A DNA stretch of 61,069 nt, counting the filler, from Asterionella formosa (taxonomy: Eukaryota): NCBI GenBank assembly GCA_002256025.1. It is 18 parts of 18 records of this genome, joined end to end, with 100 filler letters (N's around TTAATTAATTAA, not from the genome) between each part and the next. Parts side by side here need not be neighbours in the genome. Positions count along the whole stretch, not along the records: positions 23,827 to 27,129 come from NKIB01014268.1; 17 more parts are not named here. One strand, given 5' to 3'. Both the position numbers and the translations under genes were made by a program. The stretch's first letter is position 1, and every line of letters starts with the position of its first letter. Below, piece by piece: positions 3,307 through 27,129 of the stretch. The notes under the pieces were generated by a model that saw nothing but the letters and a program-made list of their open reading frames with translations, did no database searches and had not been told where the DNA came from.

Positions 3307-3406
3307 NNNNNNNNNNNNNNNNNNNNNNNNNNNNNNNNNNNNNNNNNNNNTTAATTAATTAANNNNNNNNNNNNNNNNNNNNNNNNNNNNNNNNNNNNNN
3401 NNNNNN
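3307..3406. other. Artificial contig linker (44 N + TTAATTAATTAA + 44 N). The same linker recurs starting at 6712, 10117, 13521, 16924, 20326, 23727, 27130, 30529, 33927, 37323, 40718, 44113, 47507, 50899, 54291 and 57681
   Basis: An identical 100-nt spacer with stops in all six frames occurs about every 3.4 kb. Intervening contigs shrink almost monotonically from 3306 to 3289 nt. Confidence 0.99.
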
Positions 3407-5638
3407 ATGCATAGTGCAACAACTGTGATTGAAACCTGGATTTCAGGAATATTGACCTGGATTTCAGGGATAAAGCGTTGAGCAGAATCAGCAATTCTTT
3501 GATCAGGATTTAAATAAAGCAAATAGATCTTTTCAAATGCTGCACCTCAATTAGCATCAACACACATTGCTCTAAAATTTTCCAAGACATCATGGTGATC
3601 AGAAGTATGTACCTGAACACCACACACCTTTTTGCCACATTTCCAGATCAGATCAATTGCAGGAAAGTTGCAGTTTCGGGGTACATACATTCCATCTTTT
3701 ACAATGACTTCAGGCAATGTGTTGCAGCAAAAGGTTTCAATGAGATTGCATTCCTTCAAAAGAAATCCCTCCCAAGTAACATCTGCATTGAGTGAGCAGC
3801 AACTGATCACAAGGAGTTCAAAAATCTGACCACAAGCACTATTTGTCACGCCATTGTTGCCACCAATCTCCTAAAGTAATTCCTCATGTGTTTTGACAAA
3901 AGCCAGTAGCATATTCCAAAAGTAATGTCGATAGGCTAATATCACCACAGGATACAAAGACTTATACTCATAAGCCTCAGTCCCCTTACCAGGAATTGAA
4001 TATTTCCTGTCATATTCTATTTCATCTCCTGTAGTTGACAAAACACAAGCAACAGCAGATGTTGTGTTACGATTCAATTTCGTTTTCGATTTTGTATCTT
4101 TCAAATTTTCATGAGAGCCTCTTCATAATCATTGATAGAAAAGTTTGATGAAATCTATTTCTTCACATGCCAGGGACCCCACCAGTCACCTTTAATATTT
4201 CTTGCCGTCACTTCGTTTTGCCACTTCCTCAAAGGCGAGCTTTATTTCTGACAAATTCATTGTGCAAGGGTGATTGTACTCCACATACCCTCGATACCTT
4301 TCCCTGAAGGCAAACTCGTTGTTTGCGGAAGCTGAAATGATGGAGACAATGCGGTTTCCCTTCATTATGCCGTTGATGATACTAAAAGGAAAGGGAAGCG
4401 TACCCAGATCACCAGATTTTTTTAGCTCTGGTCGAGCAAATAATCTGCTGATCTGATCGAAAACTAGGACCCATTTCTTGTTCATACGTTGAAGAATCAA
4501 GTCAATGGCATTGACGAAAGTATTGAGATCACTAATTTTTTCGTCCTTGTCTGAGCCCACCTTCCATGAGAGAGCCGAAAAGGAAGTACCAAATGATCTA
4601 CAGATTGCAGTGTACAAATCGTTAACATCCTTCCATTGTTGACAGTCTGGAATGAAAGTTACGAGGTACTTGCAGCTGCTGTTATATTGCAGGTTACGAA
4701 CCAAGTTGACAAGTGAGTGTGACTTGCCAATTCCATCTGGTCCTTTGATCATGATTCTAGTCCGACGCATTGTCTCGAAGGCATCTTCAATCACTTTCAT
4801 CATTTCCTTCACAATTTTAGGGCGATATAAGATTCCCCTACTTTCGCAGTCGTCGAACCGCACCTGTTGGACATTATCAATCCAGTAACTATCAGTTGGG
4901 GAAAAAGCTGATAAAGTAGGAACAGAAGGAGGTAAAGTAGGAATAGAAGGAACCTCTTTCGGATCTATCATGTAGATATGCATTGTCCTTGGAATGCTTC
5001 GCACTTGCTGATCCGCCTGCAAGCGCTTAAAATGAACGTTGAGCTTCTCCTCTATAAGCAATATTAAGGACGAGGCTTCCTCCTGGTCATAATCTTGATT
5101 CCGCTCCTTGTTCAAGTCATCAAATTGAAGTTTGAGCCTCTCGTCTATAACCTTTATTAAGGAGGCAACGTCCTGCTCATAATTTGGTTTCTGGCGTTTC
5201 GTCGTTCCTTGGTCTTTTCAACAGTAGCGAGTATTTGTATGGGATAAATGATACGAAATGATACGTGAGTATTAGGAGCTGTGAACTACAATACAATAGA
5301 AGGGATTCCATGAGATCAAAACACGTACCAATATCAGGTTGGATGACCACGATCAGGATCACGATCACGAACGCATTCTTGCTGCTAGTTCCCCAATTCA
5401 GATGAACAACCAGACGACCTCCAGGATCCAAGGTTGGATCATCAGCTCCCTCAGGAACCGGCACTTGAGTTCCAGGTGGGCACACACGGAGCTGCGCTGA
5501 TGAAACACCTTGAAGATCGTCACCACATTTAATCTTTACAGCTTTCATCAAGTCAGCAATGACATCATTCTTCTTCAACGTGACATAAACTGGCAATAGT
5601 CCTGCGTTTCCACGGAACAACTGGAACCAAACCTTCAT
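3407..5638 (-). pseudogene. Crinkler/RHS (CR)-type effector-like gene: ubiquitin-like header, P-loop NTPase and PD-(D/E)xK REase-like domain, disrupted in the 3' third
   Basis: The N-terminus MKVWFQL...VTLKKNDVIADLMKAVKIKCGDDLQGVSSAQLRV resembles CRN ubiquitin-like headers. Intron 5328-5214 joins it in frame to Walker A GPDGIGKS and Walker B VLVFDQ. A frameshifted LKVTGGVP follows near 4170, then PRNCNFPAIDLIW...GVQVHTSDH (REase-like). Stops and frameshifts occur near 4192, 3871 and 3547. Confidence 0.72.
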
Positions 5639-20425: not shown

Positions 20426-23400
20426 GAGGAGGGGAGTCCGATAACTAACCTGACAAGCTCAAAAGGAGATTGGAAGGTGTGTTTGTTAAAAGAGTGATTA
20501 GATTAAGTTAATATAGAAGAACGATGATTTATGCATAGGTACTGTCAGACAAACAGACACAGACATATACTGACACGTCATGTAAAGAGGTGATTCACAA
20601 CATCCCCCCCATCTCATAACAAAATGAGATAAAAGGAGTAGAATCAATGATTGTCAAAGAACTGATTTGTCAGGCCGTGCAAGCGTGGCGACCGCACGAT
20701 GACCAGCATCGATAAATTGATATCCCATCATAGTCATGCAATGAGCACGTAGAGTAGAATACGGGAGTGCCTTGGTAAAATGGTTGGCTAAATTATGAGC
20801 AGACGAGACCCGGGTAAAATGGGCTCTGCCATGACAGAAATTTTCTTGCAAAGCCTGCGTTTTTGTAGCAATATGACGGACATTGCGTGTTAATTCACCC
20901 GCATGCGCAATGATTTGTGCAGCAGAATTGTCTTCTCCAATGGAGATAGCATCATGATAAGGAATTGACATATCCTCCATGTAAATGCGTAGCCACAAAA
21001 CATGTTTAGATAAGGTGGTGGCTGCATCAAGTTCTGCTTCAGTAGTATTGTATGCTGTTGTACTTTGTTTGCGGCACAATGTAATTACTGCAGTATCATT
21101 AATCATAATGACACCACCAGAATATGCTAACCAGTCAAATATGGCACCTCCAAAGTTAGCATCCGCATAGCCTTTGGTGGTAGGTGCTATTCCAAAAAGA
21201 GGTTTGCTGATATTAGAAAAATGTTTCTGTTCTTGAAGCGTGGATGATAATGAGGTAGATACTGATGAAGTGGAGATCAGACTAGTCATAATACGGGGCA
21301 TATGCCAGAAAGTTTGATCTTTGTCAAATTGGTGAGCTTCAACGCTGATGACAGTAGGTTCACCCAGCCACGGAGCAGCTTGACTGATATGTGAAACCGA
21401 AACCGTGGAACCCCTAGATACTTTTCTGTTGAATGCAAGTGGAATATCCAGATATTGACGGAGGTGTTTTGCAATTTGTAGTAACGCATCAAAATGTAAT
21501 GATCCAGGAGCATTTTGATATTGAGCCAGCCTTTGTACTGCTGTTTGTATATCAAGCCTGGTCCATTGGCATAGGTGTTGAAATTGCCCCAACAACGTCC
21601 TATATTCAAAGCCATAAAGATGAATCGCTTTATGAAGTTCACTTGGAGAATATGGTATACAACTAGCAAGTGCTTCTTCATGTTGTACGCCACCTGAGCA
21701 TAGGAATCATGTTGGTTCTTGTTTATCCCAGGACAAACCATAAACATATTGAAGAACGTCATGAACCATATGAATTTGGTCAATTGTCATACAATTGGAA
21801 CTAAACAGGAATCTGAGACCAAAAAAATGAGAGACTTGCCCCATATTGTGTATCTTCCAGTGAGATTCAAGAGTAGTAACAATATGGTTGTATGTATCCA
21901 GTGATGAAGTTCCTATCAAAATATCATCAGTGGCTCTGGCTAAGATGACATGACATTGATTAATTGTACCTTGGTAGATGCATTGATCTGCGCGATTTTT
22001 GATTAGGCCCAGTTGTCCACAGAGCACTTTATCATCATGTTCTCCCCATTCTCGAGAAGCGGGTCCATATAAGAGACATTGAGCCATGAGTCCAATAAGT
22101 TTAATGGAGACCTCAGCTTTTCCGTTTTGCGAGGATGAGTACGCGCCAGTGGGCTCCACCGAGATGTGCAGCAGAGACAACTCGGTCTTGAGCGTGTGGT
22201 TAGCAAATAATTCCCCATCCATACGGATACGGCACACACGGTTGCCAGTCCGGATCTGCAAGTGTTGGATGATCCAAAGGATGAGTTTTGCTGGTGTAGT
22301 GTGTGATTGACGACAGAATGTCCAACGATGATTAGAGATTGCCTCTGTGACTACTAAAAAGCATTTGAATCCACGGCAGGATTGTTTACCATAGAATCCA
22401 AAATCCATATGGATAAGACTTCCAAGAACCTTGAAAGGAGATTCAACAGTAGGACCTCTGGATAAGGAGGGCAGTTTTTCTTTGAAACAGATTGGACAGG
22501 AGAATGTGTCTGGTATAGGGACATTCAAAGGGAGACCCATAACGCTTGTTCCATTGAGCAATAATTCCATAGCACGCCGGCCTGGGCAGCCCATTCGAAG
22601 ATGAATGAGATGATAAAGTCCTGATGGTTTCATGGTTTTGATAAGGTCAATAGCAGAGGTGGTAATCCCTAAAGACGGTTTATGTAAATGGACAATGATG
22701 TAGTCTGCATCATCAAAGGTCAATAACTTGAAAGAATATTCTTTCCCGTTGGGAAGTTTTAACCATAACAGGTTACCTGTGGGACGAAGTTGATGATCAG
22801 CCTCATAGCCTAGGCATTTGAGAGCACGAATACTGAGGGAGCGCCGCCGATAGTGTGGCATTTCCACTGTGTTGGGAAGTGATACCTCCAGTTCAACAGT
22901 TCTATCTGATGAAATGAAACATGGATAAAGTGTGCCAATGTATCCAACTTTATCGGCGTCACCAAGTTTAGCAGTCTGGCATAAAACAGTGGAGCTCACA
23001 ACATTCTGTAATTCGTTGCTCATGCAAGTGACATTCCCATTTGCTCCAGTGTCCACATGCATCAAAGTTTCACCTTTGTGGAGGTTTGCAGCAAATTCCA
23101 GACCAGTGGTGGATGAGGAAGTGGAGGAGTGCGGTAGAGAGGAAGAGATATGTGTAAGAACTTCAGTGGGATCAGAGTTTATCAGAGCTAAGTCATCAAC
23201 AACCTTGTGTGAATCACAAATATGAGCAACAAAAGCGACCATGCCTGTGTGATAAACTGGGGAAGATGTGATAACCTGATCATTGTCAATATCATGAAGT
23301 CCAGGGGATCTAGGAGTGGGGACATTCCAGCTGTATTGATGAGAAAATGGTGCAATGTTATACATGTTCTCTCTCAATGTGATATGTATATCATCTATGA

Positions 23401-23726
23401 CAGACTGAAGGTGTGTAGGCTCCGCATTCTTGTCCTCAGGCATGGTGGAAATAGCCTGAACTGTAAAGAGTTGAGTATTTGCTGGAGTGGTGTCTCGTGG
23501 ACCAGAGCAACCAAGAGAACCACAAGGAGGTCGAGCAGGGGTTGCATCAAACGGAGAGAGCCGAGCAATTTTAGCAGAATGTGCTTTGACAAGTAGTTCT
23601 TTTCGGTTGTCTGAGAGTCGATTGAGATGCCAACAATCGGGCGTTTTATGGTTACTACCAAAACAAATACAACAACAGAGAGGGTCATGTTTGACACCAC
23701 ACCAAGGAAAGAGACACATTTGGTGA
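20426..23726 (-). mobile_element. Degenerate Ty1/copia (CoDi-like) LTR retrotransposon: Gag knuckle, protease, integrase, partial RT, RNase H, PPT and partial 3' LTR (20602-20426)
   Basis: CICFGSNHKTPDC knuckle, HVDTGAN protease, HLRMGC..CPIC, IHMDFG, RMDGE and SSQNGKAE integrase motifs, DQCIY..RATDDIL RT, and GYADANFG, NTTEAE, GEDNSAA, NLANHFTKAL RNase H. The PPT GAGATGGGGGGGA (20615-20603) precedes TGTTG. There is a frameshift near 21710. Confidence 0.93.
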
Positions 23727-23826
23727 NNNNNNNNNNNNNNNNNNNNNNNNNNNNNNNNNNNNNNNNNNNNTTAATTAATTAANNNNNNNNNNNNNNNNNN
23801 NNNNNNNNNNNNNNNNNNNNNNNNNN

Positions 23827-25715
23827 GTGGTTCCGATCACCATGTTCTCCACCATTCTCGCCCCACTTTGAATATCCATCACATCTTTGCGTTTCTGGGA
23901 AGTCCTGGCTGGTAATTTACACAAGAATTTAAGATTCTTTTCCATTGGGCCTCCATTAAAAACCTGTGGACTTCCGAAACGATGAATGTTTCTTACAGTA
24001 TGCATCTGTTGATGAAACTTCGCAAGCTTCCATCCCTGAGAGGTTGTTGTTCTCGGGCATTCTTTTACCAGCTTAGTAAAATAGTAGTTGACAACGCTTT
24101 GGTGTTCCTGTGGTAAATTTCCCACATCAAAACTCTCTTTACTAAACCAGGTATTGTAGCAGAGCATCCCTTCGAATAGACCTTGAAAGTTTCGAATTTC
24201 TTGATTGGTCATACCACTTTCTTCTCGGCAGATTTTGATTCCAGCATCACATGCCATGACAACACAGGCAATAAGCATCACTCCGATTCTTTCGTTAGCA
24301 GTTATTTTCGTTTTGCAACCATGAAAGCCGAAATTGAAGGAACATCAAGGAAGGTCTCGGTCACTCTGGTGAAGGAAGAGTTTAGATATTTTGTTGAAAA
24401 ACTGGTCAAACAGTTTTCGATTGGAATTACCCTTCACTGTTTTGGGGCGCCCAATCATATAAGAATATAGCTCCATGAGGTGATACATTATTCCTTCTTG
24501 AATGGAATGGAGTTTTTCAGGAGGAATGTGCCCATTAACACCAAGAGGATTGCCACCAAAACACAACTGATACCAAAAGGGATAGATGAATCTTTGGCTC
24601 ACATTATCCAATAAATCTTCTATGCCCCGGATTAATAGTTCCTCGTAATCAATCTGACCTACAGGACTGCATTCATGAGATGGATTCTCCGTTTGATCAA
24701 ACGGACAATCACATTCATGACACATTCTGGCAGTCTTTAGATATGTTTTCTTTCGTCCGCATTGTCCATCTAAACCTTCAGCATCACCGAGAATTAGACC
24801 AACCGGAACTTTCACATTAAGTGTAAATTGATTGCCTCCGAAATTGAAAATGTGTTTGAATCCACCAGCTTGTTGGACATTCTTGACCCCCTCAAGAATC
24901 ACACCAAGGATAGCGTGATAATCGGATTCCTTTTGATCAGGGGTTAGGGACTGGATTTCAGATAGACTTGATGAGGTCAGCTTTGGGATCAATCCGATTG
25001 GCCGCCATGCATTGACCTTATTTCTCACATTGGTAGTAAATATACCAAGTGACATTAGGAGAGGCTCCATTGTGTACTTTCCTTTTTCAACCGTCTGTGT
25101 CTTGTCAATAAAGAACATGAGTGGAACAAGGAAGTCATTTGGCTGAGAACATAAATATTCATGGGCATCTATCCACCAGGTACCAGTGTGAAATTCGGAT
25201 CTGACACTGGTGGGATGTGGTGCTTTACACGGATTGACGAAATCAAATGACACATTTTGTGGTGCCATTAGTATGTCATTTGTCAAGAGATTCTTAACCT
25301 GAGCCATAAAATCAAAACATACAACATCAATCAGTTTTCCATCATGCAATATGGCCTGTTTCACCTGGGGAGTTCAATCATTATGTTAAATCGGTTTTGA
25401 AATTCTTTCAGAACAGTGGTCCTCCTGGGAGGACAAGATTCAAAAATGAATCCAGCTTCCTGAGCTGTGCTGCAGAAACTCATGATTTGATCATACATAA
25501 AAAGAAGAGAACGGGTGATGAGCAAAAGACTAATCAGTTGAGACTTCATTACATTGCCAACTGAGAATGGTATACCAGGATCGGCGGAGGAAAACCTTAT
25601 CCCTGTGGTGCTCAGGACTGGAATAGTATTGGTTTCATCCTGTACCACTATTTCGCTTGTATTTTCTTCATCTTCTTTTTGATCAATGTCATATATATTG
25701 GTATGATCGCCAAAA
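23827..25715 (-). mobile_element. Plavaka/EnSpm (CACTA-related) transposase pseudogene
   Basis: FDFMAQVKNLL, EFHTGTWW, LVPLMFFIDKT, WRPIGLIP, GDAEGLDGQCG..CHECDC, EKLHSIQEG and KFHQQMH..IHRFGSPQVFNGGPMEKNLK..KLPARTSQKR. Frameshifts lie near 25362 and 24345. Confidence 0.8.
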
Positions 25716-26234
25716 TGTAGTGTTTGAACATAGTAGGGTCGGAGATGGGGAAGGGGTATGGGAACCAACCGGGAGGGGAACAACCCGATGAACAGAACAA
25801 TGTGTGTTCCTCCACATGCCATTCCATCCGAACAACCCTCCATCATCTCACATTCAACGAATTTTCAGAGACATTATATTTTCCCCGGGAAAAGAACCAA
25901 TTCTTACCACACTACGGAACTTCTCCGGAAATCAATGTACTATCCAAAGGTTGATAATCGCTTATAATCGCCCTAAAAATAATGGTAATTATACATCACC
26001 ACGGAAACTGAGATCGGACACCACTTCAGTCAGTACTCACCTACTTACTATACAACTTGATACTGAACGGGACACATCAACCTCTACGAGGTCCATGCTA
26101 CCTTCCCCTCCCACTATCAATACTGCTTCCGCTCCTGGTGAAATTTCGCAGCCATCCACGCCTGCGGGGGGGCGGCGGGGNNNNNNNNNNNNNNNNNNCC
26201 CCCCCCCACACGCACCATGACTTAAATAAAACAA

Positions 26235-26318
26235 GACTACAGATTCAAGCCAACTGATGAAGCCCCTTCAGGCGAAAAGTAACATTAGTCTCATTACTTT
26301 TTGGCAACTTAAGTAGTC
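26235..26318 (+). ncRNA. Type I hammerhead ribozyme
   Basis: Stem I GCCAA (26249-53) / TTGGC (26301-05), extended by GACTAC/GTAGTC. Core CTGATGA (26254-60) plus an extra A. Stem II GCC-CCTTCA-GGC, then GAAA (26274-77). Stem III AAGTAA/TTACTT. The NUH cleavage triplet UUU ends at 26300. Confidence 0.85.
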
Positions 26319-26358
26319 ACCTCATCGTCGCTTGGATAATAGTCGTTGTAGCCCACAC

Positions 26359-26383
26359 CCCTACCCTAACCCTAACCCTAACC
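26359..26383 (+). repeat. Interstitial telomeric repeat CCCTA(CCCTAA)3CC
   Basis: Three perfect CCCTAA units at 26364-26381 plus partial units on either side. Confidence 0.8.
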
Positions 26384-26738
26384 TGAGACCATTGAACTTC
26401 CCACCATAGTTTTTTTACCTGCAAAACTGTGGGATCGCTTTCCTGAAATATCACAAGTTGGTCTCACATTATTTTCCAATTTAATGATGTGGGATCCCAG
26501 TGAACGATGGACTGCTCAACAGGCAAGCAAGTCGATTTAATTTGATGAATTGCCCATGCCAACACCAGACAGTGCCAAGCCAAGATTCCATGACAGAAAA
26601 TAGACAAATGATTTACTAATATTTAAAATGAAATTAAATGAATCAAATCAACACCAGCAGATACTTGGTATTTCACTACTGGCAGCTTTAAGAAAGAAAA
26701 TTAGTATGCATGTTCACAAATCATCAGAGCAAAAATGA

Positions 26739-27129
26739 TTAATCACAATCTTGCTTAATTGCGGAACAGTAGCTACCACAGTTGCAAATCAGTGGTGGGC
26801 AAAAATATATTGTTGCAATATTACATGCTTCTGTTGGAACTGGCCCTGTAAAATTGTTCTTTCCAAAATTTAATGTGGCTGTCAAGAGAGTGAAATTTTA
26901 GAACAAATGGTCAAGTAATGTAAGTTTCAGATAAACAAAACTTACTCAATGAAGACATGAGACCAATTTCTGTGGGAATTGGACCAGTAAACATATTGGA
27001 TGGAATCTGAAAATCATTGAGAATTGTCAAGAATCCAATCTCTGTAGGAAGTAAACCAGTCAACTGATTATCATGTAGATACAATTTCGTTAGATTTGTC
27101 AAGTATCCAATCTCTGTTGGAAGTGTCCC
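26739..27129 (-). CDS. Leucine-rich repeat protein, C-terminal part (intron about 26945-26879)
   Basis: LxxLxLxxNxLTGxLPTEIG repeats. The last exon ends in a Cys-rich cap (CNIATIYFCPPLICNCGSYCSAIKQDCD-stop). Confidence 0.82.

Follow-up and report, generated by a model that had tools for sequence, protein, structure and literature searches.

Endonuclease-less (EN-) Penelope-like elements (PLEs) of the Coprina and Athena types are the described systems closest to the locus studied here. The sections of PMC6431247 and PMC8557442 used here describe, for both types, a hammerhead ribozyme directly followed by telomere repeats in reverse complement, and copies that are 5′-truncated by telomere repeats. 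Coprina is the type reported outside rotifers, a diatom included, and the relevant section of PMC13159263 names Phaeodactylum as that diatom. The same source describes lost terminal genes with Coprina in their place and telomere repeats between the PLE and the chromosome. Athena/Terminon copies are described in part of PMC6431247 as truncated by telomere repeats, arranged in head-to-tail chains and able to capture host genes. Hammerheads have been reported in protist PLEs, with a variant in the Thalassiosira oceanica genome (PMC4209133, in the section consulted).

The window analysed here is a stretch of 61,069 nucleotides from the diatom Asterionella formosa (assembly GCA_002256025.1). From its motifs and host range, we assign one fragment in it to the 3′ end of a 5′-truncated, Coprina-type EN- PLE. 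The sequence-only reading had proposed a 5′-truncated EN- PLE with a hammerhead followed by C-strand telomere repeats, and this order agrees with the published Athena/Coprina architecture. The element is of a known kind, and the copy is a real and fairly ordinary example. It adds a well-documented case from an aquatic protist to the small set of EN- telomere-priming PLEs, the sister group of telomerase, and leaves the current picture of PLE biology unchanged.

With Coprina (fungi, Selaginella, the kuruma shrimp and Phaeodactylum tricornutum) the present case shares a DKN reverse-transcriptase (RT) ORF with a thumb, no GIY-YIG nuclease, a 3′ hammerhead, a short reverse-complement telomere run between the element 3′ end and the chromosome, 5′-truncated copies, and terminal genes that are lost or replaced, as far as these traits are covered in the sections used of PMC13159263, PMC8557442 and PMC4209133. 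It differs from Coprina in two respects. Two ORFs are present in the relatives found here, which is commonly regarded as an Athena trait, although Coprina-1_Alen has it as well. In addition, the distal side of the window copy is a truncated DNA transposon, not a telomere or another PLE. With Athena/Terminon of bdelloid rotifers, the present case shares the lack of an endonuclease, the two ORFs seen in its relatives and a hammerhead with reverse-complement telomere repeats after it, which in Athena follow immediately (PMC6431247, section used), and the nearest Atlas clusters consist of rotifer proteins. However, the Athena repeat unit is (ACACCC)n or (TCACCC)n whereas here it is CCCTAA, and Terminons are giant whereas the unit of the relatives is about 3.6-4.2 kb (loci L010, L030 and L041). 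The hammerhead resembles those of protist PLEs, which the section used of PMC4209133 describes as monomeric and type I, with an extended helix III and without evident loop-loop contacts.

Linkers of the form N44-TTAATTAATTAA-N44 recur between positions 3307 and 57780 at a spacing of ~3.4 kb, and the pieces between them become slowly shorter. The window is thus a chain of about 18 separate, size-sorted contigs. Physical linkage to the PLE fragment is therefore limited to 23827-27129 (3303 bases with one internal 18-N gap), and readings built on neighbours across a linker are unsound. The Plavaka and leucine-rich-repeat (LRR) neighbours named in the sequence-only reading both lie on the contig of the PLE fragment, as identified with Pfam (Table 1). 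Copia-type retrotransposon genes (RVT_2, E 1.7e-6) occupy 20654-23770 on the minus strand of an adjoining, unlinked contig and are not true neighbours.

Table 1. Features on the contig that carries the PLE fragment (window coordinates)
Feature	Position	Strand	Basis or remark
Truncated, frameshifted copy of a Plavaka-type DNA transposon	23827..25731	-	Neighbour, outside the retroelement; Pfam Plavaka E 3.1e-14 (24345-25373)
G-rich filler of 60 bases between truncated Plavaka and truncated PLE	25732..25791	.	
C-terminal tail of the PLE reverse-transcriptase ORF, 5′-truncated copy	25792..26225	+	Homology; tail searches, tblastn, contigs of other copies
G-run, 18 N, C-run	26166..26201	.	Copy-specific or assembly artefact
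Type I hammerhead with outer helix	26235..26318	+	Descriptor; covariance model R1; covariation in relatives; fold z -2.06
GGATAA box in the post-hammerhead segment	26334..26339	+	Exact match; recurs in relatives
C-strand telomere repeats, CCCCTA(CCCTAA)3CC	26358..26383	+	
Flank of 26 bases with AG at its end (26408-09), followed by the final exon of a protein kinase (about 26410-26537; stop codon 26538-40)	26384..26540	+	
Fragment of a leucine-rich-repeat gene, running off the contig end	26911..27129	-	Pfam LRR_1 E 3e-5

The reverse-transcriptase tail and its full-length relatives

The plus-strand frame from 25792 reads TEQCVFLHMPFHP...LIIAYNRPKN and represents the last ~145 codons of an RT ORF. 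The ORF tail FLHMPFHP...LIIAYNRPKN, which had been noticed from the sequence, is present in this frame. We searched 1.84e9 representative proteins with the tail by phmmer and obtained 332 matches at E≤1e-3, 38 of them at E≤1e-10. Many of the matches are proteins of 600-700 aa in which the very C-terminal end is aligned. Among the longer proteins the nearest is P0151 (428 aa), which shows 91% identity across 97% of the query and carries RT motifs A-E followed by the same tail as the window. A comparison of the tail with RT C-termini had been proposed as a check of the sequence-only reading, and this match bears out the assignment of the tail to an RT. P0151 ends in ...HTMT, which places the stop of the window ORF at the TAA of 26223-26225, the frame being restored by homology. 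This predicted stop lies 9 bases ahead of the outer helix of the hammerhead.

When full-length relatives were aligned to the window by tblastn, only their last ~70-80 residues matched, and no second copy of the RT was found within the window. Contigs from other copies continue to the left of 25792 with 19 and 52 extra letters that do not fit the window, so the window copy is 5′-truncated at about 25792. These contigs, and the others compared below, come from three DNA runs and one RNA run and were used as contigs throughout. Among the tail matches were also two bacterial surface proteins with Ig-like repeats, P0005 and P0068 (E 5e-17 and 1e-9, against tail residues 28-65). Their matches run through 7-10 repeated stretches and look like an artefact of repeats or composition.

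The G/C hairpin-like tract reported around the N gap is indeed present, but it does not belong to the element. In three contigs of other copies, 26165 is joined either to 26202 with 4 letters between (runs X10, DNA, and X8, RNA) or to 26213 with 15 letters between (run X2), and P0151 reads through without a G/C tract. Since the tract is missing from these contigs and from P0151, it is either specific to this copy or an assembly artefact.

To place the family, we relied on the full-length relatives. Nineteen long relatives align over their whole length (alignment A1) with an N-terminal LLGLGLxF/KF, DKN(L)GP, the RT motifs and the tail conserved; DKN and LLGLGLxF were seen in these proteins, whereas the truncated window copy keeps the tail alone. 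D133, K134, L136, G137 and P138 are nearly invariant, and the motif is DKN but DKG in 2 rows. The A1 proteins end 25-60 residues past the tail motif. DKG/DKN and GxKF/Y are given as diagnostic PLE motifs in the sections used of PMC8557442 and PMC13159263.

A profile search in which 8000 proteins were scored returned at least 2388 at E≤1e-5. The 120 matches listed all have lengths of 597-699 aa and precomputed PF28514 and/or PF26215, which the Atlas names DUF8422 and HTH_animal. The rotifer proteins of the nearest Atlas clusters carry DUF8422, HTH_animal and RVT_1. GIY-YIG was found neither in the 120 profile matches listed (precomputed Pfam) nor in 27 proteins scanned with the local Pfam. The sequence-only reading had stated that no GIY-YIG follows the tail, and it was right in this: the window ORF stops at 26223-26225 and none of the 120 listed relatives has the domain. 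The local Pfam, which is without DUF8422 and HTH_animal, gave no significant family for the tail or the long RTs, and a weak RVT_1 match in 1 of the 27.

A full-length relative, P0014, was modelled with AlphaFold2 (pLDDT 88.1, pTM 0.83) and compared with the PDB by Foldseek. The six best matches are catalytic subunits of telomerase (TERT chains, E 3e-9 to 2e-7), followed by RTs of group II introns and retrons; TM-scores are modest (0.37-0.44). The A1 profile searched against PDB sequences gave a best E of 0.16 with a group II-like RT; its additional matches to BRCC36 are spurious.

The aquatic family of two-ORF, nuclease-less PLE-like elements (loci L001-L079) is thus very large at the count given above. 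ORF1 of the relatives measures 320-800 aa and overlaps the RT ORF in another frame, and no Pfam family was found in the upstream ORF1s of seven relatives.

The hammerhead and the sequence downstream

A complete hammerhead fold had been claimed from the sequence. We searched the whole 61-kb window on both strands with a strict descriptor that demands at least 4, 3 and 3 pairs in the helices, and found one site, 26249-26305. Helix I is formed by 26249-53/26301-05, the core CUGAUGA lies at 26254-60 and is followed by an extra A at 26261, and helix II pairs 26262-64 with 26271-73 around a 6-nt loop. GAAA lies at 26274-77, helix III pairs 26277-82 with 26294-99, and beyond an internal loop an outer helix pairs 26235-40 with 26313-18. 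The site has the type I features CUGANGA...GAAA, an A-U pair at 15.1-16.1, an H17 other than G and an open helix I. Cleavage is predicted after U17, which is U 26300. The core deviates at one place, the extra A between A9 and G10.1. The single-sequence fold is mildly better than that of shuffled sequences (Table 1).

Relatives show the same structure on the same strand. With a closer 9-row alignment, we gathered 79 metagenome loci that encode relatives. The strict descriptor found 11 sites on their sense strand and 0 on the opposite strand; a relaxed descriptor found 47 and 3, respectively, compared with 0-2 in ten block shuffles. A covariance model, R1, was built from a gap-free alignment of eight 47-nt hammerheads of relatives with the window left out; three MAFFT alignments (A3, A4 and A5) were out of register and were not used for it. 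R1 recovers 26249-26305 in the window with 23.8 bits and E 1.3e-4, the next best match having E 0.52. The claimed fold is thus found both as the sole strict-descriptor site and by a model made from relatives only. In the related loci R1 reached E≤0.01 at 44 places spread over 42 of the 79, with all 44 sense and 0 opposite; 8 of the 44 are training sequences.

The pairing is also conserved. In the eight-sequence alignment, 10 of 12 pairs show changes in both partners. Pairing holds in 93.8% of cells versus 65% in shuffles, a value that 0 of 500 shuffles reached; this pairing figure is inflated by pre-selection with a descriptor demanding 3, 2 and 2 pairs. Beyond that demanded minimum, helix III still holds at positions 3, 4 and 5: of 39 distinct sequences, 35, 34 and 28 respectively are paired there, and each position shows 4 to 6 pair types. 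A U occupies H17 in 34 of the 39.

It is very improbable that the fold is a chance motif or a decayed, inactive relic. Such a view could point to the extra A in the core, to a helix II of just 3 pairs, and to a close copy, P0002, whose core is altered and which reads ANWW where the window DNA has stops. However, the extra A is a conserved trait, present in 29 of 39 distinct family hammerheads, and P0003 encodes the same residues as the window across the motif. Strand-specific conservation with covariation across relatives and the R1 match argue against chance as well. The lack of an Rfam match would also suit a relic: scans of 2.1 kb and of 106 bases gave no Rfam hammerhead at E≤10, and none reached the gathering score in the window. 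But Rfam likewise gave none at E≤1 in 15 related loci, so its silence reflects low sensitivity for this variant and not absence of the ribozyme. A very large family in aquatic metagenomes with a hammerhead variant that escapes Rfam is useful to know for annotation.

Downstream of the hammerhead, an exact GGATAA occurs within 80 nt in 15 of 37 distinct hammerheads of the family, mostly at an offset of 15-31; the background frequency is 0.22 per kb. The GGATAA of the window matches this box, which assigns 26306-26357 to the element. The box could be a promoter/initiator or an RT-binding site. Short-match searches with the post-hammerhead segment and the flank gave nothing informative.

Among the relatives, 50-900 nt separate the RT stop from the hammerhead, and a further 100-170 nt lead from there to the ATG of ORF1. 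With ORF1 starting at this distance past the hammerhead, cleavage would leave the repeats and the coding RNA on separate molecules. On three contigs the hammerhead occurs twice, at a spacing of 3.6-4.2 kb (L010 at 1502 and 5222, L030 at 5 and 4216, L041 at 1566 and 5181), which indicates tandem units or pseudo-LTRs. The hammerheads of L030 stand at both contig ends, as expected of tandem or circular templates. In L048, a post-hammerhead segment of ~105 nt is tandemly duplicated (3428-3631), and each copy ends in a C-rich, telomere-like CCCCCTCCCTAAC.

The C-rich telomere repeats reported in the sequence-only reading are CCCCTA(CCCTAA)3CC. The tract at 26358-26383 is the only one in the window, in the predicted orientation and 52 nt past the only hammerhead. 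Where 0.10 12-mer matches are expected, the tract yields two, which overlap; 1 of 100 shuffles reached this number. A DNA contig of run X3 holds another copy that is 5′-truncated at 26214 and has C-strand telomere repeats directly before it, and DNA and RNA contigs run from the hammerhead into masked repeat. The link between hammerhead and telomere repeats is thus supported in the window's own lineage.

The environmental relatives gave a different result. At least two tandem telomere units were found in 0 of 79, save two chance-like CCCCAACCCCAA matches, and telomere-like 7-mers after their hammerheads were not enriched (0.61 versus 0.43 per kb; 5 of 41 loci), in a test limited by metagenome assemblies and unidentified host telomeres. 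The repeat tail is therefore without support as a family-wide feature.

Junctions, flanks and history of the copy

Both junctions of the copy are real. The right junction is spanned by record 15 of X2, a 132-nt DNA contig that covers 26315-26446 with 3 differences, so that the PLE, the repeats and the flank are contiguous in independent data. The left junction recurs in an independent protein, P0261, from an ENA contig of 1692 bases, which reads the PLE in antisense, the filler and Plavaka in one frame. Compared with the window, P0261 is 96% identical, with 6 substitutions and with indels near its own end. In the contig comparison, the contigs listed leave 25732-25791 uncovered, a coverage hole that carries no evidential weight.

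The Plavaka contigs of three DNA runs all leave the window at 25731 and enter one common sequence, and the Plavaka proteins P0264 and P0265 extend N-terminally where the window diverges. The Plavaka copy is thus truncated too. The filler matches neither Plavaka nor PLE contigs and gave no informative blastn-short match. On its plus strand it contains GGG and GGGG runs.

On the right, 42 codons of the kinase exon match positions 225-259 of 263 in the Pfam Pkinase profile, weakly (E 0.038). An RNA contig of 981 nt fits 26413-26607 with 7 differences and extends leftward by 751 letters that are absent from the window, which points to an intact kinase message in some related organism or paralogue. 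A flank of 26 intron bases followed by the last exon of a kinase fits a healed break, and it is plausible that this junction is the scar of chromosome breakage and healing.

We propose that the locus is a dead, 5′-truncated copy (about 590 bases) of a Coprina-type EN- PLE with a healed-break history, and we put the probability of this joint explanation at roughly 0.8. Full-length relatives have ORF1 and a telomerase-like RT of 600-700 aa that ends without a nuclease, followed by a monomeric type I hammerhead and the GGATAA segment. In this lineage a short C-strand telomere run comes next. By analogy with published Athena/Coprina, the CCCUAA run of the RNA would pair with the TTAGGG 3′ end of a chromosome, and that end would prime reverse transcription. 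With the chromosome end as primer, a nuclease would be unneeded. Since the copy is continuous through the hammerhead into the repeats, its template escaped cutting at this ribozyme. The probable role of the ribozyme is either to trim tandem or read-through transcripts or to serve as a fold beside the priming site. For one EN+ PLE, the section used of PMC11167929 reports that cleavage was not required for insertion in vitro and that reverse transcription started internally.

At this locus, a telomere tract may have been the primer, seated on a break that lay 26 bases before the last kinase exon. The copy is oriented as it should be if priming took place on a chromosome end with the kinase/LRR side proximal. 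The end at 25792 could mark where cDNA synthesis stopped or reflect later loss, and the truncated end would later have been joined to a broken Plavaka copy through the 60-base filler. The simplest history would thus be a break in the last kinase intron, telomere seeding, PLE addition and later joining on the distal side.

The sequence-only reading had instead suggested healing or insertion at an internal break. Spelled out, a telomere-seeded broken end would have primed PLE cDNA, the incomplete cDNA would have been ligated with filler to the other broken end, and the site would never have been a chromosome end. Both neighbours are truncated and joined by 60 bases of filler, which is typical of end joining. 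The 5′ end bears no telomere repeats, though a purely terminal history predicts them, and the junction is real and old enough to be found in two diverged sequences. Still, we regard capture of this kind as unlikely. The contig is 3.3 kb long and its distal side is just a transposon, which is no sign of an internal position; moreover, terminal addition followed by fusion or by transposon-mediated rearrangement would give the same picture. Subterminal chains of EN- PLEs may also become internalised, as is proposed in the section used of the review PMC6431247. The chromosomal position of the copy, if fixed, would show whether such elements also reach internal sites.

The AG at 26408-09 ahead of the exon and the RNA contig, whose sequence upstream of 26413 departs from the window in the manner of a spliced mRNA, raise another reading. 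Here the PLE and Plavaka fragments would sit within a large intron of an intact kinase gene, no break would have occurred, and the telomere tract would be an interstitial repeat that either provided the insertion site or formed there. We consider this quite improbable, because the 2.6 kb of contig to the left hold no upstream kinase exon, and because the RNA contig shows 7 differences over 195 positions, stems from a lake metatranscriptome and may represent another strain or a paralogue. The juxtaposition might also be an assembly chimera of repeats (Plavaka, PLE and telomere), as the short-read scaffold with an internal gap and the departure of the majority Plavaka contigs of three DNA runs at 25731 would allow. 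This is hardly credible, given that an independent contig bridges the right junction and that the left junction and its filler recur in an independent, diverged sequence.

A bolder reading is tentative, and we think it rather doubtful as a whole. In it, the cDNA of an EN- PLE served as a patch for a chromosome break: a break in the kinase intron would have been seeded with telomere repeats, extended by the PLE and joined through filler to a broken Plavaka copy. The former chromosome end would since have been internalised, leaving a scar now common to diverged strains or duplicated copies. Independently of this, and with the same doubt, the aquatic-protist clade, with thousands of two-ORF EN- PLEs, the A-insertion hammerhead missed by Rfam and the GGATAA box, may be undescribed as such.

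The Plavaka copy itself shows two further changes. It has a frameshift at 25375-25382, where other copies have an extra C behind 25382, and, unlike P0264 and P0265, it is without the Cys/His-rich part at the N-terminus.
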